From an uncultured Alphaproteobacteria bacterium (lineage in GTDB: Bacteria > Pseudomonadota > Alphaproteobacteria > RF32 > CAG-239): a stretch of 64,000 bases of DNA. Below are positions 22,702 to 59,789 of this stretch, in pieces. The position numbers were made by a program, and so were the translations under genes. The notes below the pieces were generated by a model. It was not told where the DNA came from. It did no database searches and saw nothing but the letters and a program-made list of their open reading frames with translations. Location of the stretch: the NCBI GenBank assembly GCA_934254915.1, contig CAKQMH010000002.1, positions 85,259-149,258 of the forward strand, given 5' to 3'. Position 1 is the first letter of the stretch; every line of letters starts with the position of its first letter.

Positions 22702-24714
22702 ATGACTGAAAACGAAAATCTCAAACCCGAAGAATCAGCTTCTGTGGCCGAAACCGGCAGCGAATTTTTTTTGGTTAAAGAGCGCTATGAAATTAAGTTT
22801 GACGCTCCTTTGCCGCAATTTAACACTAACGGCGCGATTGCTTATAAAACACAGGATAAGACCAACCCTCAGCGCGAATTGTTTGCTCTGATTTGCGACA
22901 ACAATAATCCGCCGCGGTTATCAATTTTGCCTTATCTCAAGTCCATTGATCATCCGAATGTCTTAAAATTGGTTGATTTCGGCGTTGTTGACTATCCGGA
23001 AAAGAAAACCCGTAATATGGCGCTTATTTACAAACAACCGACCGGCCCCAAAGTCAATGATTTCAGCGAAGACTTAAATCTTAAAGGCAATGCCGAAAAA
23101 TTCAAATCTTTATTAATGTCTATGCTTTCCGCCAGCGAGAGTCTTAAAAGTTATAACATTACGCATCGCGCTTTGCGCTTGGACAATTTGTTTTATAAAG
23201 ATTCGACCCGTTCGGAAATTGTCGTCGGCGACTGTGCAGCTTCTTTCCCGTCGCTTTATCAGCCGGCCGAATATGAAACCGTTGAAAATTTGCTCTGCCT
23301 GCCGCAAGGACGCGGTAATGGCTCGGTAAGTTGCGATGTTTATGCCATTGCCGTGGTTATGATTAATCTTTTGCTTGGTAAAGAAAATAATTTTGGGCTG
23401 TCAACGCCCGAACTTCTGCACCAAAAACTAAAAAAAGGCTCTTATAATACACTCTTAGCCAACGAAAAAATTCACACCCCGTATACCGCCGTCTTAAAAG
23501 GTATGCTGTGTGACAACCCCGAAAATCGCTGGAACTACCTGCAAGTATATAATTATCTTGAAGGCAAAGCCGTTTCTTTCACCGAAGGTTCTGAACGCTC
23601 AATGCGCTCCCTCAGTCTTGGCGGTGAAAAATATTACACTCCTAAAAGTATGGCGATTGCAATGTTGGCTAATCCCGATGAGGCACTGGCAGTCATCAAA
23701 TCCGGCAAATTGCAGGAATGGATTAAAAACGGTCTTGAAAACGAAAAGCTGCTTGCCAAAATCGAAAAATTAATTACCGCCGATAAAGAAAAAAAAGAAT
23801 CTTCTACCGATTTGGTATCACAAATCTGCATTTTATTGGATAACTCATTACCGATTAAATGCGGCGATTTATATCTTTTCCCTGACGGATTACCGAAAGC
23901 TGTCTTTTATTACCTGCGCAACGGTCTGGAATTGAAAGACTTTTATGCCCTGCTTTCGACAGATTTAATCAAGCTTTGGTATCAGGAGCAGCCGTCTTTG
24001 CGCGCTCCGGCCAACAGCAATGAATTCAAAATTTATATTAACCGCAAAGATTACGGCTACGGCATTGACCGAATTATGTATGATTTTGACGATGATTTAC
24101 CTTGCACCAGTCAATTAGTAAACACCGACTTTATCAACTCGCCGTCACGCCTGCTTAAAGCTTTGGATTCCAACTACCAAGCTTTTAAGGAGCAAAAACC
24201 GTTTGATCGCAATATCATTGCTTATTTGCGCTGCAAGATGGGCAAAAAAATCGACGGTATCATCACCGACCTTAACTCTCTGCAGGAAAACATTCAAAGC
24301 AGTGCGATTATTCGTCTTTATTCCAATATTCAAAATAAGTACGGACCGGTTCAGCTGCATAACCTGACCTTATGGATTTTAAACATCACCAAGCCGATAA
24401 TTCGCTCTTATCACAACTTCAAATATCAAAAATATTTGGAACGCGAATTGGTAAAAGTCGCTAAAAGCGGTAAAATTATTGATCTTTACGATATTTTGGA
24501 AAACGAAGAAGCCAAACAAAAAGACCGCAGTGAATATTCCGAAGCCCTGAAGGAAATCCGCAGTCTGTTAAACGAAAAAAATATTCTTCAAACCGGCGGC
24601 AGCAAACTTGATGAACAATCACGCAATCTGGCTTTACGCTGCGGTTCGATTTTTGCGGTTTTAGCCATGATAACCTCTTTTATTTTCAGTCTGATTTACT
24701 GGGTGGTACAATAA
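22702..24714 (+). CDS. Tail-anchored protein-kinase-fold pseudokinase
   Basis: 670 aa with a protein-kinase-like order (HPNVLKL, HRALRLDN, GDC, SVSCDVYAIAVVMINLLLG) but the catalytic Asp and Gly-loop are missing. C-terminal TM. Confidence 0.5.
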   Translation: MTENENLKPEESASVAETGSEFFLVKERYEIKFDAPLPQFNTNGAIAYKTQDKTNPQRELFALICDNNNPPRLSILPYLKSIDHPNVLKLVDFGVVDYPEKKTRNMALIYKQPTGPKVNDFSEDLNLKGNAEKFKSLLMSMLSASESLKSYNITHRALRLDNLFYKDSTRSEIVVGDCAASFPSLYQPAEYETVENLLCLPQGRGNGSVSCDVYAIAVVMINLLLGKENNFGLSTPELLHQKLKKGSYNTLLANEKIHTPYTAVLKGMLCDNPENRWNYLQVYNYLEGKAVSFTEGSERSMRSLSLGGEKYYTPKSMAIAMLANPDEALAVIKSGKLQEWIKNGLENEKLLAKIEKLITADKEKKESSTDLVSQICILLDNSLPIKCGDLYLFPDGLPKAVFYYLRNGLELKDFYALLSTDLIKLWYQEQPSLRAPANSNEFKIYINRKDYGYGIDRIMYDFDDDLPCTSQLVNTDFINSPSRLLKALDSNYQAFKEQKPFDRNIIAYLRCKMGKKIDGIITDLNSLQENIQSSAIIRLYSNIQNKYGPVQLHNLTLWILNITKPIIRSYHNFKYQKYLERELVKVAKSGKIIDLYDILENEEAKQKDRSEYSEALKEIRSLLNEKNILQTGGSKLDEQSRNLALRCGSIFAVLAMITSFIFSLIYWVVQ

Positions 24715-38627: not shown

Positions 38628-39107
38628 ATGAAAAAAGTTTATTTTTTATTGTTCGGCCTTGCTCTTATTGTTTCCGCCTGCTCGAAAAATGAAGAACAAT
38701 CAACCGAAAACTCTTCCAAACCTGAGGCTAATGTAACCTTGAATAATGAAGTTTACAGCTTTGACCAGGCAACCTTAAGTGAAGGCTGTTCTTCTGACAG
38801 TGAAATTATCTGCACTATCAATGCCAGTATCAAATGCACTATCAATCCGCAATTCAGCGAATGCGATGCTTATAAAGCTTTTATGCCTAAGTTTGTATTT
38901 ATGGAAGATGAAAGCCTGCAGCGCCCTACTTCGCAGTCTTATAAAATAACCAAAATAAAACCTTTATCTGACGGCAGCGTTGAAGTTTATACCCAAAGTA
39001 CCTGCAATGGTAACTGGTTCGGACTTTGCAACGGCAATATCATTTATGTGATGTCTCATCAGGACAATCACTGGATTGTTAAAGAAATTTATGCTATTGA
39101 AGCTTAA
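38628..39107 (+). CDS. Cys-rich lipoprotein
   Basis: 159 aa. Lipobox LIVSAC. Eight Cys in the mature part. Confidence 0.5.
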   Translation: MKKVYFLLFGLALIVSACSKNEEQSTENSSKPEANVTLNNEVYSFDQATLSEGCSSDSEIICTINASIKCTINPQFSECDAYKAFMPKFVFMEDESLQRPTSQSYKITKIKPLSDGSVEVYTQSTCNGNWFGLCNGNIIYVMSHQDNHWIVKEIYAIEA

Positions 39108-39538
39108 TTTTCCTGTAACGATTTTTCTAAAGCCTTATCAAATTTTTTTGATTTAAACTGTTGATAAGGCTTTTTATTTACCTTAAATCGCGCCGTTGAA
39201 TTCATTTGTGCCAAATCATCATTTAGATTTTGATTATTCGGCAATTGTCCGGTCTGATCTATATGAGCTAAATCATTATTATAATCATCATATTTTTGTT
39301 GATATTCCGGTTGTTCATCGGTTGTTGTTACTCTCTGCCCGTATTCAGGTTTAGCTTCTTTGATAGTTATTTCTTCACCTTCGGTATACCGCGGCATCGG
39401 CAATTTTTCCGGCTGTGATAACTCACTTTCAGGAATAAAAAATTTCGGTTTTTGTAATTTGCGCACATATGGAACATCTGCTGCCGCCACCGTACTGCTG
39501 ATTAAAAACATTGCCGCTGCTAAGCTGTATTTTAACAT
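39104..39538 (-). CDS. Secreted hypothetical protein
   Basis: 144 aa. Signal peptide MLKYSLAAAMFLISSTVAAA. Q/N/D-rich. Confidence 0.4.
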   Translation of the reverse strand: MLKYSLAAAMFLISSTVAAADVPYVRKLQKPKFFIPESELSQPEKLPMPRYTEGEEITIKEAKPEYGQRVTTTDEQPEYQQKYDDYNNDLAHIDQTGQLPNNQNLNDDLAQMNSTARFKVNKKPYQQFKSKKFDKALEKSLQEN

Positions 39539-39586: not shown

Positions 39587-40261
39587 ATGAAAAAACTTTT
39601 TTTTATCTTAACAATAAACGTTTTTAGCTTTTTACATTTTAACTTAGCTAATGCGGTTGATTGTTCCACTCTAAATTCAATTCCGACAATTGAATTAACT
39701 TCGTCTTATGGTCAACTTGAATATAATAACAGCCTGAATAATCTGCAAATAACCAATCTGGCCTCACGATACGGAATTATTGAAAAAGGATTGTTTGCCT
39801 CAGGACTTGCAACCGTAAATGTCAATTGGGAAATAAATGTTAATACCATTGCCAAAGTTCACGGCGACTATGATATTTGCGTTATTCCGACTTCACTAAA
39901 TGTCTTTATCGGTTTCAGCAAACCGACTGTTTACATTTCTCAAGACCTTGTTAAAAACAGTTGCGAATACAATGTCGTACTGCGTCATGAGCAAACTCAT
40001 CAACAAATCAATAAAGTCATACTTGATTATTTTTTACCACAGTTTCAGTCAGCTTTAGAACAAATTGCCGCTACGGTTAAACCGGAACATATAGCACTAT
40101 TAAGTGATATTGATGCCGCCACAACTAAATTAACCACCAAATATAATCAAAAACTGTCGCCCTTGATTGAAGTATTCAAGTTTGAGCTTCTGAATGAACA
40201 AAGTAAATTGGACAATCACTTAAATTATGAATATGAGCAAAACCTCTGCCGCCCTAAATAG
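39587..40261 (+). CDS. Secreted protein with HExxH motif (putative Zn-metallopeptidase-like, DUF922-like)
   Basis: 224 aa. Signal peptide plus VVLRHEQTHQQ. Confidence 0.4.
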   Translation: MKKLFFILTINVFSFLHFNLANAVDCSTLNSIPTIELTSSYGQLEYNNSLNNLQITNLASRYGIIEKGLFASGLATVNVNWEINVNTIAKVHGDYDICVIPTSLNVFIGFSKPTVYISQDLVKNSCEYNVVLRHEQTHQQINKVILDYFLPQFQSALEQIAATVKPEHIALLSDIDAATTKLTTKYNQKLSPLIEVFKFELLNEQSKLDNHLNYEYEQNLCRPK

Positions 40262-41034: not shown

Positions 41035-41724
41035 CTAATTAGTCCAAAGCGCATTTTTAATTTTCTGTGCTAAAAACTCATTATGCTGCTTAATTTCTTC
41101 CTCACTTAGCGGAAACAATCTTGGCTCACGATAATTTTTTATCTCATTTTTTACATCAGCGGTTTGTGATTTTTTAGCCTTTTTTGCATCTAAAAGCAAA
41201 CTAGGCTCTCTTCCTCCTAACAATTCCAGATAAACTTCGGCCAACAATTGAGCATCAAGCAACGCTCCGTGCAGCGTACGGCTGGTATTGTCAATCTCAA
41301 AACGTTTGCACAACGCATCCAAATTACATCTTGCCCCCGGAAACAAAGCGCGGGCAATTTCCAATGTATCAACAACCCTGTCCCACTTAATTTCCGTTTT
41401 ACCAATCTGCTTAAGTTCATAGTTAACAAAGTTAATATCAAATGATGCATTATGCGCAACTAAGGTCGCATCGCCGATAAAATCCAGCCACTCTTCGGCA
41501 ATTTTATCAAAAGTCGGATAATCTTTCAAAAATTCATATGACAAACCATGAACTTTAAATGCGTCTTCGGGAACTTCTTTTTCAGGGTTTATGTATTGAT
41601 GATACGTTACTCCGGTCGGAACATGGTTTATCAACTCAACTGCGCCGATTTCGACCAATCTTTCACCTTTAGCATATTCAAAACCTGTTGTTTCCGTATC
41701 AAAAACAATTTCTCTAGTCATCAC
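41035..41724 (-). CDS. dnaQ: DNA polymerase III epsilon subunit (3'-5' exonuclease)
   Basis: IVFDTETTGF (Exo I) and VAHNASFDINF (Exo II). Confidence 0.85.
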   Translation of the reverse strand: MMTREIVFDTETTGFEYAKGERLVEIGAVELINHVPTGVTYHQYINPEKEVPEDAFKVHGLSYEFLKDYPTFDKIAEEWLDFIGDATLVAHNASFDINFVNYELKQIGKTEIKWDRVVDTLEIARALFPGARCNLDALCKRFEIDNTSRTLHGALLDAQLLAEVYLELLGGREPSLLLDAKKAKKSQTADVKNEIKNYREPRLFPLSEEEIKQHNEFLAQKIKNALWTN

Positions 41725-42304
41725 TCATTTCCAGTCCGCTTATAATATTGATTAATTCGCTTCTTAATAAATTTTGCGGTTTATCGGTATTTATTACCAC
41801 ATCTGCCAGTTTTACTTTTGCCTTATTATCCATTTGGACATTATTTATTTTATCAAAATCATCAGCTGATACATTATCTCTGAGCATTACTCGTTGCTTT
41901 TGAATTTCATAATCAACATCAGCCACAATTATAAAATCACAAAACATATCCCAATTCATTTCAAACAGCAACGCAACATCAATAAAAAACCAACCCTGAA
42001 CTTTAGCATATTTTCTGATGGTATATTTCATATAATCGCGCAAAAACGGATGCGTAAGACTTTCCAATAATTTGAGCTGCTCTTTATTATTAAAAACAAT
42101 ATTCCGCAACAGACGTTTATTAACCACACCATCTTTAACCGTTTGCGGAAAATGTTCGGCTATGGTTTTAATAAAGCTGCGATTAAAATACATTCTTCGA
42201 ACCCAGGCGTCGACATCAAAAACCGGATACCCCAATTGCCGAACAATTTTTGCCAATGTTGTTTTTCCACATCCGATAGAACCGGTAATAGCCGCAAGTT
42301 TCAT
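41714..42304 (-). CDS. coaE: Dephospho-CoA kinase
   Basis: 196 aa. MKLAAITGSIGCGKTT P-loop. Overlaps the dnaQ start. Confidence 0.85.
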   Translation of the reverse strand: MKLAAITGSIGCGKTTLAKIVRQLGYPVFDVDAWVRRMYFNRSFIKTIAEHFPQTVKDGVVNKRLLRNIVFNNKEQLKLLESLTHPFLRDYMKYTIRKYAKVQGWFFIDVALLFEMNWDMFCDFIIVADVDYEIQKQRVMLRDNVSADDFDKINNVQMDNKAKVKLADVVINTDKPQNLLRSELINIISGLEMSDD

Positions 42305-42533
42305 AAAATTTTCCTTGATTCAAAAGCTTAATATACTTATCAACAAACTGCCCGTTTTCTGTGTATAACTGACCATCTGCTAAAGTTTATAATATTTTAT
42401 CACCGCTTTGTAAAATTTAATCTCTACATTTACACACAGGACTAAAAATTATCCCTGCTTGTGCATATATTAAAATATCAGAAAATTACAATTTTTCTAT
42501 TTACAAATTTAGCTGTCTGATTCTTAAACAAAA

Positions 42534-42548
42534 TTAACAAATGGTTAA
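42534..42548. promoter_or_regulatory. CtrA-type box TTAA-N7-TTAA (TTAACAAATGGTTAA)
   Basis: Exact match to the CtrA half-site spacing consensus. Confidence 0.45.
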
Positions 42549-42567
42549 AATTTGATTCACGCTGTTA

Positions 42568-42582
42568 TTAACAAATTATTAA
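42568..42582. promoter_or_regulatory. CtrA-type box TTAA-N7-TTAA (TTAACAAATTATTAA)
   Basis: Second exact TTAA-N7-TTAA, 34 bp downstream of the first. Confidence 0.45.
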
Positions 42583-42609
42583 CATCTGCACAACTTTGGA
42601 TATAAAAAC

Positions 42610-42627
42610 TTATCAACATGATTCACA
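42610..42627. promoter_or_regulatory. Adjacent DnaA-box-like 9-mers TTATCAACA + TGATTCACA
   Basis: Each has one mismatch to TTATCCACA/TGATCCACA. A further TTATCAACA copy sits at 42337-42345 and a TGATTCACG at 42553-42561. Confidence 0.35.
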
Positions 42628-42806
42628 TGAATATACAATTTACTAATACATTTTAAAATATTTATATGGGCTTGGCAGGATGTGTACAACTTATGAACTG
42701 TTTACCCTGACCATTCATATAACTTTTATTTGACATATTTCAATTAACATAATATAAAAAACCCAATCCTACCTGCTTTAACTATCTATTTCATTATAGG
42801 TTTTTC

Positions 42807-44060
42807 ATGAATTTAAAAGATTTAAAACAAAAATCTCCTACTGAGTTGCTAACTCAGGCGGAAGAATTGGGTATTGAAGATGCTTCTTCAATGCGTGTTC
42901 AGGATTTAATGTTTGCTATCCTTAAAAAAGTTGCCAGTGAAGACAAAACCATTTACGGTGAAGGTACAATTGAGGTTATGCAAGACGGTTTTGGTTTTCT
43001 GCGTTCGGCGCAGTCCAATTATCTTGCCGGTCCTGATGATATTTATGTTTCTCCGGCTCAGGTTAAAAAATTCGGTCTGCGTACCGGTGATACGGTCGAA
43101 GGTGAAATCCGCGCTCCTAAGGATAATGAGCGCTACTTTGCCTTGCTTAAAGTTAATAAGATAAACTTTGAAGATCCTGAAAAATCTAAGTTGCGGGTTA
43201 ATTTTGATAACTTAACTCCGCTATACCCGACCCAAAAACTTGATTTTGATATCATTAACGGTGAAAAAGATTATACTACTCGTGTTATTGACCTTATTTC
43301 GCCGCAGGGAAAAGGACAACGCGGTTTGATTGTTGCTCCGCCGCGTACTGGTAAAACCGTAATGCTGCAAAATATCGCTCATGCGATTGCTACTAATCAT
43401 CCGGAATGTTATTTAATCGTTCTTTTGATTGATGAGCGTCCGGAGGAAGTTACTGATATGACTCGTTCCGTTAAGGGAGAAGTTATATCTTCTACCTTTG
43501 ATGAACCGGCTTCGCGCCATGTTCAGGTTGCCGAAATGGTTATCGAAAAAGCCAAACGTTTGGTTGAAACCAAAAAAGATGTGGTTATCCTGCTCGATTC
43601 CATTACTCGTTTAGGACGTGCTTACAATACGGTAATTCCATCTTCCGGTAAAGTTTTAACCGGTGGTGTTGATGCTAATGCTTTGCAGCGTCCGAAACGT
43701 TTGCTTGGTGCGGCACGTAATGTGGAAGAAGGCGGTTCTTTGACCATTATTGCCACGGCTTTGATTGATACCGGATCGCGTATGGATGAAGTTATTTTTG
43801 AAGAGTTTAAAGGTACCGGTAACTCTGAAATTATTCTTGATCGCAAACTTACGGATAAACGTTTGTTCCCGACGATTGATATTACTCGTTCCGGTACGCG
43901 TAAGGAAGAATTATTGGTTAGTAAAGAACGCTTATCTAAAATGTGGGTTCTGCGTCGTGTTCTTATGCAAATGGGTATGACTGATGGTATGGAGTTCTTG
44001 CTTGATAAGCTGCGTCTGAGTAAAGATAATGATGATTTCTTCAACAATATGAATTCATAA
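42807..44060 (+). CDS. rho: Transcription termination factor Rho
   Basis: 417 aa. N-terminal domain, RNP-like FGFLR and Walker [13 protein letters not shown]. Confidence 0.95.
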
Positions 44061-44764: not shown

Positions 44765-44958
44765 AATAAAATCAACCTCAACTTTAAAAAATTCGAGTCT
44801 GTATAAAGCCCGTAGAAAAGAATTTTAACCATTTTATGATACACTTATTAAAATTGGGTAAAATACCTCCCCTGAGTCAAAAAATCGCGTATTTTAAACC
44901 CTTGCTCAAATTTGTGTTTTGCATTATAAGTTTACAAGGATTAATGAGGATTAAGATA

Positions 44959-46302
44959 ATGGATAATAAAACAATTTATGCTCTGTCTACGGTTTATGGC
45001 AAATCAGGAGTTGCGGTAATTCGTATTTCAGGGACAAACGCGTTAGAAGCTGTTAAGTATATGACTGATTTGTCTGTTGCTGACCTTAAGCCGCGTTATG
45101 CTTATTTTGTTTCGTTGCATCATTCTCTTACTCGCCAAACTATAGATAAATGCCTTTTATTGTATTTTAAGGCGCCTAATTCGTTTACCGGTGAAGATAT
45201 TGTTGAGTTGCAGGTTCATGGTTCTAAAGCCGTAATTAAGGCTTCTATGGACTCTTTATCGCAGCTTAAAGACTTTCGCTTGGCTGAAGCCGGAGAATTT
45301 TCCAAACGTGCCTTTTATAATCAGAAAATGGATTTAACTGAAGCGGAAGGTCTGGCCGATTTGATTGATGCCGAAACTTCCGAACAACAAAAGTATGCTA
45401 TTCGCCAAATGGAGGGCGGACTTAAAAACCTCTACAATGATTGGCGCGAAACTCTGCTTAAAATTTTAGCTCATCTTGAAGCTTATATCGATTTTCCTGA
45501 CGAAGATATACCGCATAGTGTTGTTGATACGATGATGAACGATGTATTTAAACTTCGTAATTCGATTATGGAACATCTGCAAGGTGATAATATTGGTGAG
45601 CGTCTGCGTGAGGGTTTTCGCGTTGTTATTGTCGGACCGCCCAATGCCGGTAAATCAAGCTTATTAAATGCCATAGCCAATCGCGAGGCGGTGATTGTTT
45701 CGGATATTGCCGGCACAACTCGTGATGCGATTGATATACATCTTGATCTTGGCGGCTATCCGATTATTTTTACTGATACGGCCGGTCTGCGCGAGGCCGA
45801 AGAAGAAATTGAGCAAAAAGGCATTGCGCTTGCTTATCGTAAAATTCAAGATGCTGATTTGTTAATATGTTTATTTGATGCTGAAAAAGACTCTGTTCAA
45901 CTGTTTGATAATATTAAAAAATCATTTAAAAACAGTATTTTGACGGTAGCTAATAAAGCTGATAAATTATTACCTGATAAAATTGCTGAATTATCTGCTG
46001 CCGGCTGTCTGGTTATATCAGCAAAACACAAAGACGGAGTAAAAATATTGCTGGATAATATTAAACAGCAAATTTCCGAACGTTTTACTTCCAACTCAAA
46101 TTTACTGATTACACGTCAGCGCTATCGTGATGCCCTAAAGTTATGTTTAGAAAATCTGCAGATGTTCAGTTTTGATAAAGAGATAGAATTGACGGCAGAA
46201 GATATCAGATTGGCCGCCCGTGAATTAGGTAAAATCACCGGACGGATCGAAGTTGATGAAATTCTTGATAAAATTTTCGGAAGTTTTTGTATCGGCAAAT
46301 AA
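44959..46302 (+). CDS. mnmE: tRNA modification GTPase MnmE (TrmE)
   Basis: G-domain GPPNAGKSSLLN, DTAGLRE, NKAD and a C-terminal ...CIGK. Start moved to the ATG at 44959 (RBS gagga); the tracked upstream extension is rejected. Confidence 0.9.
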   Translation: MDNKTIYALSTVYGKSGVAVIRISGTNALEAVKYMTDLSVADLKPRYAYFVSLHHSLTRQTIDKCLLLYFKAPNSFTGEDIVELQVHGSKAVIKASMDSLSQLKDFRLAEAGEFSKRAFYNQKMDLTEAEGLADLIDAETSEQQKYAIRQMEGGLKNLYNDWRETLLKILAHLEAYIDFPDEDIPHSVVDTMMNDVFKLRNSIMEHLQGDNIGERLREGFRVVIVGPPNAGKSSLLNAIANREAVIVSDIAGTTRDAIDIHLDLGGYPIIFTDTAGLREAEEEIEQKGIALAYRKIQDADLLICLFDAEKDSVQLFDNIKKSFKNSILTVANKADKLLPDKIAELSAAGCLVISAKHKDGVKILLDNIKQQISERFTSNSNLLITRQRYRDALKLCLENLQMFSFDKEIELTAEDIRLAARELGKITGRIEVDEILDKIFGSFCIGK

Positions 46303-46340: not shown

Positions 46341-48188
46341 ATGAATAATACTGAATTTGATGTGATTGTTATTGGCGGCGGTCATGCCGGTTGTGAAGCT
46401 TGTGCAGCCGCAGCTCGTGTCGGTGCTAAGACTGCGTTGGTTACACATAAAATTTCGACCATTGGCGAGATGTCATGCAATCCGGCTATAGGTGGTCTTG
46501 GTAAAGGTCACTTGGTGCGCGAAATTGACGCGCTTGACGGTTTAATGGGGCGGGTTATTGATAAAGCCGGTATCCAATTTCGGATGCTTAATTCTTCTAA
46601 AGGCCCTGCTGTTCGTGGTCCGCGCGCTCAGGCTGACCGCGAACTTTATAAACATTATATGCTTGAAGCGTTGCGCCAACAATCCAATCTGACAATCGTT
46701 GAAGCTGCGGTTGAGGGATTAATTTTCGATAATGATAAAATTTCAGGAGTTACTTTAAGTGATGGTGTTCAGCTTCAAGCTAAAGCAGTTGTTTTAACCT
46801 CTGGAACATTTTTAAATGGTATTATGTTTATTGGTCACGAAACCTCAATTGGTGGTCGTGTCAATGATGTCAGTTGCACCGGAATAACACCGTATTTAAA
46901 GTCAAAAGGCTTAAAAGTCGGGCGTTTAAAAACCGGAACACCGGCACGCCTTGATGGTAAAACCATAAACTGGTCGATTTTAGAAACGCAGGATGGCGAT
47001 GCTGAACCGCAGCCTTTTTCCTATTTAACTGACAAAATAACTAATCCTCAAATTAAATGCTATATTACTCATACCAACGAACGTACGCACAAAATTATCC
47101 GCGATAATTTTTCTAAATGTGCGCTTTTTTCCGGTTTGATTACCGGCGTCGGACCGCGTTATTGCCCAAGTATTGAAGATAAATTAGTAAAATTTGCTGA
47201 TCGTACCAGCCACCAAATTTTTCTTGAACCGGAAGGGTTGCATACCGATGTTGTTTATCCGAATGGTATTTCAACTTCACTGCCGGCTGATATCCAGGAA
47301 CAGTTTATTCACACCATGGAAGGATTAGAAAATGTAACTATTTTGCGTCCGGCTTATGCAATTGAATATGACTTTGTCGACCCTCAGGAGCTAAACAATA
47401 GATTGGAATGTAAAAAAGTTTCAGGACTGTTTTTAGCCGGACAGATTAATGGTACAACCGGTTATGAAGAAGCTGCGGCACAAGGACTGCTTGCCGGTGC
47501 TAATGCCGGACTAAAAGCCTTAGGTAAAGACGGATTGGTTATAGACCGTTCCGAAGCTTATATAGGAGTTATGGTTGATGATTTAATCACCAAAGGTGTT
47601 GATGAACCATACCGTATGTTTACCTCACGTTCTGAATATCGTCTGTTTCTGCGTGCGGATAATGCCGATATGCGCCTGACTGCCAAAGGCTACAATTGCG
47701 GTTTGGTCAGTGATAGTCGATACACTGTATTTAAAGCTAAAAAAACTGCTATTGACGCTTTTCGCGAAATTGCTCAAAGCCAAATTATTACTTTGTCGCA
47801 GATTGATTCTTTAGGGCTTAATATCAGTCATGACGGCGGTAAAAAGACTTTATATAATCTTATGTCTTATCATGATGTTTCACGTGAAACCATTTTAAAA
47901 ATCTGTCCGGAAGTATTGCAAATTTTACCTGCGGTATATGAGCAAGTTGAAATCGAGGCGCGTTATTCCGGTTATATAAAACGCCAGCTTGCTGATATTG
48001 AAGTCTTCAAGAAAGATGAAAATCTGCACATTAAGGATGATATTGATTATAGTGAAATTGGCGGCTTGTCGCGTGAAATGGTTACCAAACTTACCAAAGT
48101 CAGACCATCAACTATCGGTGAAGCTTCGCGAATCCCCGGTGTTACTCCGGCTGCTATCACTGCTATACTTGGGCACTTGAAAAAATAG
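46341..48188 (+). CDS. mnmG: tRNA uridine 5-carboxymethylaminomethyl modification enzyme MnmG (GidA)
   Basis: 615 aa. FAD-binding [13 protein letters not shown]. Confidence 0.95.
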
Positions 48189-48336: not shown

Positions 48337-48963
48337 ATGAAAAATTTTATGGAAAAATATAATGTTTCACGTGAAACATTTGAGAAACTGAAAACTTATG
48401 AATGTCTGCTTAAAGAGTGGCAAACTAAGTTTAATTTGGTTAGTAACTCAACTTTGGAAAATGCTTGGGAGCGTCATTTTTTGGACTCTGTGCAGTTGTT
48501 CAAATTGATTCCGCAAACCGCTAAAACTCTTATGGATTTCGGGTCTGGTGCGGGTTTTCCTGGTATGGTTATTGCTATAATGGCAAATGCAAAAACACCG
48601 TATTTAAAAGTTTCTTTAGTTGAAAGTACGACCAAAAAGACACTGTATTTAAACGAGGTCAAAAAGCAGGTTGGCGTAGAAGTTGAAATTATCAATGAGC
48701 GGATCGAAAAAATCAAACCACACATTGTTGATGTCATAACCTCGCGAGCCATGACTTCTTTAGATGCGCTGTTACAATATGCCTTGCCGTTTTGCGGTAA
48801 AAAAACCGTATGCATCTTTCCTAAAGGCAAAAAATATGCTGAGGAGCTGCAAGAGGCACAGAAAAAGTGGTGCTTTAACTATCAAATCGTTGACAGTGAA
48901 CAAAGCGATGAAGGAAAAATTTTAGTCATAACCGATTTACGTCCAATTAAAGGAGGAAAATAA
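48337..48963 (+). CDS. rsmG: 16S rRNA (guanine527-N7)-methyltransferase RsmG (GidB)
   Basis: DFGSGAGFPG SAM motif. Conserved position after mnmG. Confidence 0.85.
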   Translation: MKNFMEKYNVSRETFEKLKTYECLLKEWQTKFNLVSNSTLENAWERHFLDSVQLFKLIPQTAKTLMDFGSGAGFPGMVIAIMANAKTPYLKVSLVESTTKKTLYLNEVKKQVGVEVEIINERIEKIKPHIVDVITSRAMTSLDALLQYALPFCGKKTVCIFPKGKKYAEELQEAQKKWCFNYQIVDSEQSDEGKILVITDLRPIKGGK

Positions 48964-49743
48964 ATGCCAAGAGTATTTGCTATTGCCAACAGGAAAGGCG
49001 GCGTAGGAAAAACCACCACCACCGTAAACGTTGCCACAGCCATGGCGGCTGCCGGTAAAAAAGTTTTGGTTGTTGATATGGATCCGCAGGGTAATGCATC
49101 AACATCAATGGGCGTAAATAAAAAAGGCCGCATGGTTTCTTCTTATGAGGTTTTGATTGGTGAAAACCGTCTAAGCGAAGCAATCGTCTGGACTGAAATC
49201 CCTAATTTCTCGCTTGTTCCTGCCTCTCCGGATTTAGCCGGAGCGGAGATAGAATTGGTTGATATGCCAAATCGCGAATTTGCCTTAAAAAATGCCTTAG
49301 CTAAAGATGCTATTAATTATGACTATATTTTGATTGACTGTCCGCCGTCATTAAGCCTCGTGACCATAAATGCTCTTGTAGCGGCTGATGCCGTAATCGT
49401 GCCGTTGCAGTGTGAATTTTTGGCACTGGAAGGAATTACTGATTTAATTCGTAACATCAATCAAATTAAAAAGAAATTTAATCCTAAACTTACTTTGCAC
49501 GGCGTAGTCTTAACTATGTACGACAAGCGCAATAATTTGACCCAAATGGTTGAAGATGACGTTCGTCAGTTTTTCGGTAAAAAAGTTTATGATACGGTTA
49601 TTCCGCGTAATGTTCGCATTTCGGAAGCTCCGTCGCATGGTAAACCGGTTTTGATTTATGATTTTAAGAGTTCCGGTGCTCAGGCTTATATCAGTCTGAC
49701 TGGTGAAGTCTTGAAGAGAGAAAAGGAATTGATAGCATGTTAG
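48964..49743 (+). CDS. parA: Chromosome partitioning ATPase ParA
   Basis: KGGVGKTTT deviant Walker A. Confidence 0.9.
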   Translation: MPRVFAIANRKGGVGKTTTTVNVATAMAAAGKKVLVVDMDPQGNASTSMGVNKKGRMVSSYEVLIGENRLSEAIVWTEIPNFSLVPASPDLAGAEIELVDMPNREFALKNALAKDAINYDYILIDCPPSLSLVTINALVAADAVIVPLQCEFLALEGITDLIRNINQIKKKFNPKLTLHGVVLTMYDKRNNLTQMVEDDVRQFFGKKVYDTVIPRNVRISEAPSHGKPVLIYDFKSSGAQAYISLTGEVLKREKELIAC

Positions 49744-50765
49744 TGGATAATGAAATTGAGGAATTGTTGAACGATAACCCGACAAGTGAAAACTCTCACC
49801 ATAATAATTCGCATAAACGCAAAAGCTTGGGCCGCGGTCTTGGTGCTCTGTTAGGGGATGATGATTTTTCTTTAGAAGACAATTTGGAAAATGTAAATCC
49901 GACAGCACCTCATAGTACGGACAGTATAAGCATTACCCAAATTCATCCCGGTAAATATCAGCCGCGTACCGAATTTGACAAAGAGGCTTTGCAATCATTA
50001 GCCAATTCAATCAAAGAAAAAGGCGTATTACAGCCTTTATTGGTCAGAAAAGTTGCTAACGGTTATGAGTTAATTGCCGGAGAGCGCCGCTGGCGTGCGT
50101 CGCAGATTGCCGGTTTAACGGAAGTTCCTGTAATAATTAAGGACTTTAACGACGAGGAAGCCTTAGAAGTTGCCCTGGTCGAAAACTTGCTGCGTGAAAA
50201 TTTATCCGCTATTGAAGAGGCTGAAGGTTTTCAGCGTTTGATTGATGAGTTCTCACATACGCAGGATGCTTTAGCCCAAATTATCGGTAAGTCACGCAGC
50301 CACATCGCCAATACCTTGCGTTTGCTGAATTTGCCGCAATCCGTTCAAGAAATGATAAAGGAAAATAAATTGACAGCCGGCCATGCCCGTGCTTTAGTCG
50401 GGTTAGCTAATGCCGAAGAACTGGCTAAACAGATTGTTGCCAAAGATTTAAGCGTGCGTCAGGTGGAAGAACTTGTTGCTAAGCAAAAAGAACCTAAAAA
50501 AGAAAAAACGCCGGCCGCTAAAGACGAAGACATTGAAGAAATCGAAAAAGATTTGATTAAGAAATTGGGTCTGCGCTTAAAAATAACCCCCAACAAACAG
50601 GGCGGCGGCAAAGTTGTGTTGCAATATGCTTCGGTTGCCGAGCTCGATATGATTATAAATATGTTGGAACAAAAACCGGAAAATAATAATGTAGTTGAGA
50701 ACACTGTATTTAAACCGGCAGAAACGCCTTCAAACGATAAATTTTCAATTAAAATTGTAGATTAA
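49737..50765 (+). CDS. parB: Chromosome partitioning protein ParB
   Basis: GERRWRA ParB box and HTH. Confidence 0.9.
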   Translation: MLVDNEIEELLNDNPTSENSHHNNSHKRKSLGRGLGALLGDDDFSLEDNLENVNPTAPHSTDSISITQIHPGKYQPRTEFDKEALQSLANSIKEKGVLQPLLVRKVANGYELIAGERRWRASQIAGLTEVPVIIKDFNDEEALEVALVENLLRENLSAIEEAEGFQRLIDEFSHTQDALAQIIGKSRSHIANTLRLLNLPQSVQEMIKENKLTAGHARALVGLANAEELAKQIVAKDLSVRQVEELVAKQKEPKKEKTPAAKDEDIEEIEKDLIKKLGLRLKITPNKQGGGKVVLQYASVAELDMIINMLEQKPENNNVVENTVFKPAETPSNDKFSIKIVD

Positions 50766-57879: not shown

Positions 57880-59619
57880 TTACAAATCCTCGTCAAAATA
57901 AGTTTCAGTTTCATCGTAGTTACTGAGGTCTTCTTGATTTTCCTCATTGATTTTACGGGTTAAGGTTTCGATTTTTGAACCCTTAAATTCCGCCAAAATG
58001 GCTTTAACCAGCGGCAAATCCGAAACATTGCGTTTATTGGCTTCGGCGGCGGCTTTTTCTTTATCGGCGATTGTTTCTCCCAACGGGCCGGTCAGAATAT
58101 CTATTTCCCATTTTATACCGGTAGCTTCCAAGAGGAATTTTTGTAATGTCAGCATAAAATCATTATTGATTTTATCCGACACCCGCATTTTTATTTTCCC
58201 GTTGCTGAATTCGGTTATGGAAACATCGTTTTTGAACGCATACTCCAACAGCATTTTTTTATTTTGTTCTAAATATGCTGCCAATTCTTCCGGTGTATTG
58301 AAGACAACTTTTGCCGTCGTAACCGTATCTTCGTTCTCGCTCTTTGCGAAAGCGGTTTGCATTTGCTGCGGTTGTTGTTTCACGGCTGTCTGGTAAAACA
58401 CTTGTGGTGCGGGCGCAGCCGTATTTTTTTCGCTTAGTTTAGATTTTTTTTTTACGTCGTTTAGCATTTCAAACGGCGTTGGCAGTGAAGCAGAATAAGC
58501 AACCCTGATTAAAATCATCTCCAGTGCATCAATTTGCACCGGTGCAATTGCCAATTCATTAACCCCTTTAAGCATCATCTGCCAGATTTTTGACAGGATA
58601 GCAATTGAGGCATTGGGCGCCAGCTTTTTGCAAAATTCTTTTTCACTTTCCGATAGGTCATCGGTATCAATGCTGGAAGGAACAATTTTCGCCTTGGCCA
58701 ACATATGGGTAATGCTGATTAAGTCTTGCAACAAGGTTGTAGGATTAGCCCCGTTTTTATATTGTTCGTTAAGGTTGGCGACTACGGTATTGGTATTACC
58801 GCTCAGCAGATTCTCGAACAAAACAAAAGTTTGATTACGGTCGGCCAGACCAATCATATTCTTAACAATATCGGTTTTAACTTTACCCGAACCTAATGAA
58901 ATTGCCTGATCAAGCAGTGATAATCCGTCACGGCAAGAACCGTCAGCTGCTTTGGCAATAATATGCAAAGCCTCATCTTCGGCTTCCAAATTTTCTTTTT
59001 TGATAATGTTCTTAAAATGATTAACCAGAGTATCAACCGTCAACCGTTGTAAGTCAAAACGTTGGCATCTTGACAATACCGTAATCGGAACTTTGCGAAT
59101 TTCGGTAGTCGCAAAAATAAAAATAACATGCGATGGCGGCTCTTCCAAGGTTTTCAAAAGTGCATTAAAGGCGTTTTTGGACAACATATGCACTTCGTCG
59201 ATGATATAAATTTTATAGCGGGCATTGGTTGGTTTATAACGTACTCCGTCTAAAATCTCGCGAATATCATCAACCCCGGTGCGTGACGCCGCATCAAGTT
59301 CCAATACATCAATATGACGAGAAGCCGCAATAGCTTTGCAATTTTCACAAACACCGCAAGGATTAATCGTCGGCCCGCCGTTACCGTCAGGACCGGTACA
59401 ATTCAGAGCTTTAGCAATCAAGCGTGCCGTTGTAGTTTTTCCCACACCGCGGATGCCGGTCAAAATATAGGCATGGTGCAACCGATTGTTTTTTATGGCA
59501 TTAGTCAGCGTCTGAACCAACGCATCCTGCCCCAACAGTTCATCAAAACTTTGCGGACGATATTTGCGTGCCAGAACTACATATTGCTGATCTTGATTTT
59601 CTAAATTATTTTCTGCCAT
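57880..59619 (-). CDS. dnaX: DNA polymerase III subunits tau/gamma
   Basis: Walker A GIRGVGKTT and zinc module CGVCENC. Start reassigned to MAENNLENQ... at 59619, because the tracked 5' extension overlaps the SRP RNA. Confidence 0.9.
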   Translation of the reverse strand: MAENNLENQDQQYVVLARKYRPQSFDELLGQDALVQTLTNAIKNNRLHHAYILTGIRGVGKTTTARLIAKALNCTGPDGNGGPTINPCGVCENCKAIAASRHIDVLELDAASRTGVDDIREILDGVRYKPTNARYKIYIIDEVHMLSKNAFNALLKTLEEPPSHVIFIFATTEIRKVPITVLSRCQRFDLQRLTVDTLVNHFKNIIKKENLEAEDEALHIIAKAADGSCRDGLSLLDQAISLGSGKVKTDIVKNMIGLADRNQTFVLFENLLSGNTNTVVANLNEQYKNGANPTTLLQDLISITHMLAKAKIVPSSIDTDDLSESEKEFCKKLAPNASIAILSKIWQMMLKGVNELAIAPVQIDALEMILIRVAYSASLPTPFEMLNDVKKKSKLSEKNTAAPAPQVFYQTAVKQQPQQMQTAFAKSENEDTVTTAKVVFNTPEELAAYLEQNKKMLLEYAFKNDVSITEFSNGKIKMRVSDKINNDFMLTLQKFLLEATGIKWEIDILTGPLGETIADKEKAAAEANKRNVSDLPLVKAILAEFKGSKIETLTRKINEENQEDLSNYDETETYFDEDL

Positions 59620-59635
59620 AAGTTCAAACCTGTAA

Positions 59636-59730
59636 AAAAGGAGGAGAACAACGACCCTGATTACATTCGTTACGGCTGCTTTCTTCCGAACCTGACCGGA
59701 TTGGCGACAAACCAGCCCACTGTTCTCCAT
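59636..59730 (-). ncRNA. ffs: Signal recognition particle RNA (small 4.5S type)
   Basis: Domain IV-like GGUCAGGUUCGGAAGAAAGCAGCC. Closing helix GGAGAACA/UGUUCUCC. U-tract at the 3' end. Immediately upstream of dnaX. Confidence 0.7.
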
Positions 59731-59789
59731 TGCTTATACATAACAGAAAACAACCTTTTTTCAAGTATATTTTGGGCTTATGCGCTTAA

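Follow-up and report, generated by a model that had tools for sequence, protein, structure and literature searches.

The chromosomal origin of Caulobacter crescentus, Cori, has been mapped experimentally and combines DnaA boxes, five CtrA sites, GANTC sites and an AT-rich region (PMC6393856). CtrA and DnaA are described as competing there (PMC6393856, PMC4468827), Cori is the strongest CtrA target in Caulobacter, and the moderate-affinity Caulobacter G-boxes are defined by a T-to-G change (PMC4468827). Origins have also been predicted in Rickettsia prowazekii (Brassinga 2002, cited in PMC4468827) and in Wolbachia, Ehrlichia and Anaplasma, with TTAA-N7-TTAA and TTATNCACA as the consensus sequences for calling Rickettsiales origins (PMC1914354). 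In this work, we analyse a gap between coaE and rho (positions 42305-42806) in a 64-kb stretch of DNA from an uncultured Alphaproteobacteria bacterium, hereafter the window. Judged by its motifs and setting, the gap is very probably the chromosome replication origin of this bacterium. A first-pass annotation had already proposed as much, and the proposal gains support from a DnaA-box cluster, a switch in composition at third codon positions at 42-43 kb, an AT-rich stretch, parS sites, the gene neighbourhood and conservation in six related species. We place it, in compact form, among the alphaproteobacterial origins already known to carry CtrA-type boxes and do not regard it as a new kind of element.

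The gap resembles Cori in having dnaQ-coaE on one side and rho-mnmE-mnmG-rsmG-parAB on the other, in being AT-rich with mostly imperfect DnaA boxes and a T-to-G box (TGATTCACA here) of the G-box type, in having TTAA-N7-TTAA(C) boxes near the DnaA boxes and several GANTC sites (four here), and in housing promoters within the origin region (PMC6393856, PMC4468827). Unlike in Cori, there is no hemE or COG1806/DUF299 boundary, as coaE and rho abut the origin directly; the CtrA-type boxes number two, not five; nothing in the gap matches the IHF consensus; there is one perfect TTATNCACA box (up to four in relatives); dnaA does not lie within 42 kb to the left or roughly 31 kb to the right, the right side having been extended by roughly 10 kb through locus L089; and whereas Cori was mapped by experiment, the present origin is a putative one.

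The predicted Rickettsia prowazekii, Wolbachia, Ehrlichia and Anaplasma origins are likewise gaps, of roughly 380-620 bp and more AT-rich than the genome, that were called from TTATNCACA and TTAA-N7-TTAA boxes (PMC4468827, PMC1914354). Close relatives differ in how many CtrA boxes they carry, 0 to 7 there and 0 to 4 here. They differ in being bounded by hemE, with COG1806 or COG1253 opposite, whereas the coaE/rho gap is not, and the Rho of our lineage is not close to the sampled orders. Among the features by which Ioannidis et al. called origins (PMC1914354), DnaA boxes, CtrA boxes, AT-richness and neighbourhood are found here, and the hemE/COG1806 boundary and an IHF site are not; coaE and rho take the place of hemE and COG1806 or COG1253 as boundary genes in all seven species compared below. 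With a generic DnaA-dependent oriC of the Escherichia coli or Bacillus subtilis kind, the gap shares 9-mer boxes on both strands, an AT-rich unwinding stretch, a composition switch and a nearby parS, but it does not sit beside dnaA-dnaN or gidA-mioC and it carries response-regulator-type boxes. The known mechanism is unchanged by the finding.

The first-pass annotation had the extent, AT-richness and non-coding status of the gap exactly right: it measures 502 bp, contains no credible open reading frame (ORF) and has 26.3% GC compared to 41.7% for the window, in which it is the lowest-GC 500-bp stretch. To judge motif counts we shuffled the gap itself 2,000 times while preserving its dinucleotides, which controls for AT-richness. 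Allowing at most one mismatch to TTATNCACA, there are nine DnaA-type matches in the gap compared to 1.37 expected, a number that none of the 2,000 shuffles reaches (P < 0.0005), and their density of 9-10 per 500 bp compares with a mean of 0.61 and a maximum of 3 elsewhere in the window. These boxes are spread across 350 bp on both strands, although two of the nine, near-boxes at 42565 and 42576, are part of CtrA-type box B (Table 1). The box at 42360-42368 is the most conserved element of the gap and one of two perfect TTATNCACA boxes in the 64 kb. CtrA-type TTAA-N7-TTAA sites number three in the window, two of them inside the gap, where 0.17 are expected (P ~0.01).

All six motif coordinates of the first-pass annotation proved exact on rechecking, TGATTCAC at 42553 included, and its list of DnaA boxes holds for the positions given, yet it is incomplete: the sole perfect box of the gap, 42360-42368 on the minus strand, was overlooked, as were the minus-strand boxes at 42460-42468 and 42681-42689. 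Its description of these motifs as one mismatch from the DnaA consensus is true of TGATTCACA, the second member of the tandem pair (starting at 42619), when compared with TTATNCACA but not with TTATCCACA, from which it differs by two mismatches.

We searched for the same arrangement in other genomes by scanning species-representative genomes for Rho, which gave 80 alphaproteobacterial loci. Most of these have the order dnaQ-coaE-(maf)...rho-mnmE-mnmG-rsmG-parAB, in which coaE and rho are 2.5-7.5 kb apart, and perfect DnaA boxes in them tend to fall in that interval. Only in one of the 80, L007, does coaE lie directly beside rho; this is an unclassified metagenome-assembled genome with a Rho 91% identical to ours, and beyond it the Rho identity to any named taxon is at most 80%. 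CoaE homologues with 66-72% identity then led to five further species on metagenome contigs (L090, L093, L094, L095 and L096; L091 and L092 are the same species as L090). All six related species keep coaE and rho divergent across 475-494 bp while their flanks are rearranged. In L007 and L095, mnmE-mnmG lies on the coaE/dnaQ side, so that the dnaQ-coaE-gap-rho block has the opposite orientation to the DNA around it; as the block is inverted as a whole, the gap and its two boundary genes behave as one unit. In the same two loci (L007 287-11254, L095 8253-20585) the relocated segment is mnmE-mnmG(-rsmG-parA), and the inversion is symmetric about the putative origin.

A BLASTN search of the gap against all fetched loci returned only same-species copies (at least 99.6% identical), the matches in L007 and L074 covering the rho start only, and we therefore read conservation from a MAFFT alignment of the seven gaps (alignment A2) and from motif positions. 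The alignment is collinear, with conserved DnaA boxes, CtrA-type boxes, AT-rich block and rho promoter. Counting perfect matches in the gap out of those in the whole source (the 64-kb window, or a 20-kb locus for each relative), TTATNCACA falls in the gap in 1 of 2 cases in the window, 4 of 4 in L007, 2 of 3 in L090, 3 of 3 in L093, 1 of 1 in both L094 and L095 and 2 of 2 in L096; for TTAA-N7-TTAA the corresponding counts are 2 of 3 (window), 4 of 6 (L007), 3 of 3 (L090), 0 of 2 (L093), 0 of 1 (L094), 2 of 3 (L095) and 2 of 2 (L096). Pooled over the seven gaps there are 14 perfect DnaA boxes (shuffle mean 0.4, maximum 4) and 13 CtrA-type boxes (shuffle mean 1.5, maximum 7), that is, 4.1 and 3.8 per kb compared to 0.011 and 0.038 in 185 kb of flanks, an enrichment of roughly 370-fold and 100-fold, respectively, although the seven species share ancestry and these pooled statistics overstate their independence.

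These comparisons bear on whether the motifs could be functionless chance matches in AT-rich DNA. At 26% GC, such short motifs rich in A and T should turn up more often, and TTAA-N7-TTAA is not over-represented across the window (3 sites compared to 5.5 expected). However, the dinucleotide shuffles already account for composition, and the boxes reappear in corresponding places in diverged species between which BLAST no longer aligns the gap. Together, the shuffles, the alignment and the pooled enrichment effectively refute chance, which we consider barely credible.

The strand composition of the window points to the same place. Plain GC skew has negative values on the left and positive ones from roughly 43 to 56 kb, and its cumulative minimum is a flat floor at 42-46 kb. 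Because plain skew follows gene strand, which confounds it over 20 kb (the minus-strand HAD hydrolase gene at 44.1-44.8 kb, for example, reverses it), we turned to GC skew at third codon positions (GC3 skew), taken relative to the plus strand and regressed on chromosome arm and gene strand with 1-kb switch points. To the left of the gap GC3 skew is -0.225 in plus-strand and -0.218 in minus-strand genes, and to the right +0.033 and +0.011, with regression coefficients of 0.001 for gene strand and 0.124 for arm. Of all 1-kb points in the window, 43 kb is the best-fitting switch and 42 kb the next. GC3 skew hence steps from -0.22 to +0.02 within 64 kb independently of gene strand, a replication-type signal with origin polarity, and five of the six related loci likewise switch from a negative left arm to a positive right arm. 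The two parS sites (Table 1) lie 5-6 kb to the right of the gap; in the whole window, 0.49 matches with up to three mismatches would be expected.

Table 1 Features of the putative origin and its flanks (positions in the window; strand left empty where none is assigned).
Feature	Position	Strand	Remarks
dnaQ (DNA polymerase III epsilon), left flank	41035..41724	-	NCBIfam NF004316 and TIGR01406, E ~1e-83
coaE (dephospho-CoA kinase), left boundary	41714..42304	-	TIGR00152, E 5e-42; adjoins gap in 7/7 species
Whole non-coding gap	42305..42806		Lowest GC, top DnaA-box cluster, conserved blocks in alignment A2
DnaA box TTATCAACA, left pair member 1	42337..42345	+	Aligned TTATMAACA or TTATACACA in 7/7 species
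DnaA box TTATACACA, perfect TTATNCACA, left pair member 2	42360..42368	-	TGTGYATAA (TTATRCACA on - strand) in 7/7 species
Possible coaE-dnaQ promoter TTTACA, 17 nt, TATAAA	42386..42414	-	By eye; overlaps conserved TTATAA and GTAAAATTTAAT
DnaA-box-like TTACACACA	42430..42438	+	TTACRCACA at matching position in window, L090, L093, L096
DnaA box ATATGCACA	42460..42468	-	Aligned TTATGCACA, TTATTCACA or TTATCCACA, all perfect, in L090, L093, L096
CtrA-type box A TTAACAAATGGTTAA	42534..42548		Exact TTAA-N7-TTAA; - strand begins TTAACCAT; counterpart at matching offset in L007, L090, L095, L096
G-box-like TGATTCACG (T to G at position 2)	42553..42561	+	Contains GANTC; between the two CtrA-type boxes
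CtrA-type box B TTAACAAATTATTAAC	42568..42583		Exact TTAA-N7-TTAA, TTAACAAATTATTAA at 42568-42582; aligned block TTATTAACAA...TTAAC perfect in 5/7 species
Tandem DnaA boxes TTATCAACA and TGATTCACA	42610..42627	+	Tandem block TWATCCACA then nnnTTCACA in 7/7 species
Candidate DNA-unwinding element	42627..42668		Least stable 40-mers of region; overlaps conserved AT-rich block ACATTTTAAA
DnaA box TTGTACACA	42681..42689	-	Relatives carry aligned TTATGCACA, TTATTCACA or TTATGAACA
Putative rho promoter TTGACA, 17 nt, TATAAA	42730..42758	+	TTGAC and TATA core identical in 7/7 species
rho, right boundary	42807..44060	+	TIGR00767, E 2e-207
parS-like TGTTTCACGTGAAACC (1 mismatch)	47876..47891		End of mnmG, just upstream of parAB
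Perfect parS TGTTTCACGTGAAACA	48363..48378		Within start of rsmG
parA-parB partition genes	48964..50765	+	NCBIfam and Pfam

Within the gap, nearest-neighbour stability reaches its minimum, roughly -37.4 kcal/mol per 40-mer, at starts 42627-42629, directly after the tandem DnaA boxes. The origin proper spans roughly 42330-42700, and the right end of the gap is the rho promoter and leader. We take TTGACA-17-TATAAA as the likely rho promoter; its second hexamer is TATATA in L007, and it lies 71-103 nt before the rho ATG. On the other side, TTTACA (42414-42409) and TATAAA (42391-42386) on the minus strand form a plausible coaE-dnaQ promoter. A sigma-70 scanner found sites no commoner in the gap than in the shuffles, and it missed both the conserved TTGACA-17-TATAAA and the coaE candidate because it demands T at position 6 of the second hexamer. 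GANTC occurs four times in the gap compared to 0.61 expected from shuffles (P 0.003), with one to six sites in the gaps of relatives, and is under-represented window-wide (149 compared to 236 expected from base composition). Separately, this pattern of a site that is rare overall and enriched in the gap resembles that described for CcrM-bearing organisms. The G-box-like TGATTCACG is not conserved in the aligned gaps of the relatives, and single, non-aligned matches to the IHF consensus (WATCAANNNNTTR) occur in four of the six relatives.

The two promoters raise the alternative that the gap only houses divergent promoters and regulatory sequence for coaE-dnaQ and rho, with DnaA boxes that control dnaQ transcription: the rho promoter is conserved and the coaE promoter plausible, and DnaA doubles as a transcription factor with boxes at many promoters (PMC4468827). 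We consider this improbable, since nine DnaA-type boxes over 350 bp on both strands beside the least stable AT-rich stretch, a strand-independent GC3-skew step exactly at the gap and the presence of parS and parAB beside it all speak for an origin. Furthermore, the position is the known or predicted origin interval of other alphaproteobacteria, in which perfect boxes also fall between coaE and rho, and the dnaQ-coaE-gap-rho block survives inversion among relatives as one unit.

Several observations nevertheless weigh against calling the gap an origin. The classical boundary genes hemE and COG1806 are absent from the window, and the gap holds no IHF consensus match. The skew covers 64 kb of the genome, its step is asymmetric with a right-arm GC3 skew of merely about +0.02, plain GC skew turns negative again past 57 kb, where genes are on the minus strand, and the genes at 8-34 kb are mostly on the plus strand, head-on to a fork departing from 42.5 kb. 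Moreover, a coaE-dnaQ promoter at the candidate site would place the left DnaA-box pair (42337 and 42360) in the operon leader, so that this pair may serve transcription control and DnaA could also regulate dnaQ.

On balance, a compact Caulobacter/Rickettsia-type origin, with DnaA assembly and central boxes bound by CtrA, is likely to be the full explanation of the gap. The steps of this mechanism are inferred from sequence, whereas the motifs, their conservation, the composition switch and the neighbourhood are directly shown. DnaA would bind a spread of mostly imperfect boxes, namely the inverted pair 42337/42360, the singles at 42430, 42460 and 42681 and the tandem at 42610-42627, and would melt the adjoining least-stable AT-rich stretch at roughly 42627-42668, from which forks would depart both ways. 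The central boxes (42534-42548 and 42568-42583) would most likely be bound by phosphorylated CtrA, which would hinder DnaA assembly and compete with it as in Cori.

Whether the TTAA-N7-TTAA boxes are functional CtrA sites acting on replication deserves separate weighing, and we consider it plausible, with their sequence and placement tilting moderately in favour. Both central boxes read TTAAC-N6-TTAA and lie 27 bp from the tandem DnaA boxes. Perfect CtrA-type boxes are found in the gaps of five of the seven species, two in the window and two to four in each of four relatives, and among the 13 pooled boxes the half-sites are invariant, position 5 is C in 12 and spacer positions 8-11 are variable. 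The third TTAA-N7-TTAA site of the window (7427) and the extra sites checked in L007 fall within ORFs, and such non-gap sites are thus uninformative on a regulon.

A different possibility is that the origin is real but these boxes do not gate replication, being operators for rho or coaE-dnaQ, sites of another protein or dispensable remnants. The spacer is partly conserved (CAAAT...), and the recognised motif may consequently be longer than that of CtrA, and L093 and L094 have no perfect CtrA-type box in the gap and yet keep their DnaA boxes. Three further observations count against CtrA control: the conserved block upstream of the pilin-like/fliX operon in four species is without TTAA-N7-TTAA, the gap has no IHF consensus match, and Caulobacter cells deprived of every one of the five CtrA sites in the origin show only a mild disturbance of replication timing in the cell cycle under laboratory conditions (PMC4468827). 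A 2015 review saw no CtrA sites in origins beyond Caulobacter and possibly Rickettsia (PMC4468827). Nor did we see ctrA, cckA, chpT or ccrM in the accessible DNA (the window and the fetched loci), with no dedicated search for ccrM, and tblastn with Caulobacter CtrA against the window and 96 loci found no CtrA-like gene in the window or in the fetched loci of this lineage, its two weak response-regulator matches both being in unrelated genomes. As Brilli 2010 found a ctrA ortholog in every sampled alphaproteobacterium except two (PMC2877005), its presence is the default expectation for this lineage as well. Against boxes that leave replication alone, they sit roughly 150-200 bp upstream of the rho -35, and the putative coaE promoter is 120-170 bp away, long distances for an operator of the promoter-proximal kind, with the tandem DnaA boxes and the unwinding element 27 bp off; also, in most of these loci nearly all TTAA-N7-TTAA boxes sit in the origin gap, as in Caulobacter. 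We therefore hold a role apart from replication to be unlikely, if deserving of serious attention, and prefer to read the boxes as CtrA sites of the origin.

A confident origin call is useful for rotating and closing genomes of this lineage and for coverage peak-to-trough estimates of growth rate in metagenomes. CoaE relatives are very common in public metagenomes, one CoaE cluster being present on at least 1,000 contigs, and from metagenome sample names, which suggest animal guts, we guess that the lineage is gut-associated. It would be a third lineage with CtrA-type boxes inside the origin, next to the two named in the review, and the variation among sister species, with 0, 2, 3 or 4 boxes on a conserved scaffold, offers a comparative handle on the gain and loss of response-regulator control of an origin. 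More tentatively, as a suggestion on which we stay slightly on the sceptical side, a widespread uncultured clade of small genomes, neither Caulobacterales nor (by Rho) Rickettsiales, may have a stripped-down origin, directly flanked by coaE and rho and lacking hemE, COG1806 and an IHF site, that still carries conserved CtrA boxes, from 0 to 4 among sisters. If true, CtrA control of the origin would either date back to the alphaproteobacterial ancestor or have come and gone several times, which would contradict the view that such control exists only in Caulobacter and perhaps Rickettsia.

As for the wider neighbourhood, NCBIfam and Pfam confirm the flanks given by the first-pass annotation, coaE-dnaQ and maf on one side and rho-mnmE-mnmG-rsmG-parAB on the other. 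The HAD hydrolase gene follows 3' of rho and precedes mnmE, mnmG, rsmG, parA and parB, and maf (35620-36204, minus strand, by Pfam) lies 6 kb further left, past fliX and dksA. The annotation had also remarked on the apparent absence of hemE, and Pfam calls covering the whole window indeed include none for hemE (URO-D), hemH, COG1806/DUF299, CBS/CorC or dnaA. A search of the window at Rfam gathering thresholds returned only a tRNA and the signal recognition particle (SRP) RNA, and no RNA family in the gap. The longest ORF for mnmE (44836-46302, 488 amino acids) begins 41 codons upstream of the public start (447 amino acids); since the match to the MnmE profile starts at residue 44, the shorter protein is the likelier one.

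Several further genes in the window stand out. Three small ORFs without a Pfam family, at 39587-40261 (plus strand, 224 amino acids), 39104-39538 (minus, 144) and 38628-39107 (plus, 159), sit between a HAD hydrolase gene and an outer-membrane beta-barrel gene, an order kept in L090, L093 and L096. At 27587-34223 on the plus strand, four successive ORFs without a Pfam match (318, 520, 161 and 414 amino acids) precede the gene for a VirD4/TraG-type type IV secretion coupling protein (737 amino acids), which is conserved beside yacG in relatives; all five genes run head-on to a fork from 42.5 kb, and the 28-30 kb segment has an unusually high AT skew (+0.27 and +0.18). A 670-amino-acid protein with a weak eukaryotic-type protein kinase domain (PF00069, E 7e-8) is encoded at 22702-24714 on the plus strand, followed by a 162-amino-acid ORF without a family, with a GGDEF protein just upstream on the opposite strand. 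The gene at 169-1563 on the minus strand encodes an ADP-dependent phosphofructokinase/glucokinase (PF04587, E 9e-70), whose family is known mainly from archaea, and the same gene lies directly beside dnaQ in L094 (11288-12688) and L095 (11286-12683). Finally, the SRP RNA (59637-59731, minus strand) abuts the start of the dnaX ORF (57880-59730) by one base, with dnaX-ybaB-recR on the same strand.

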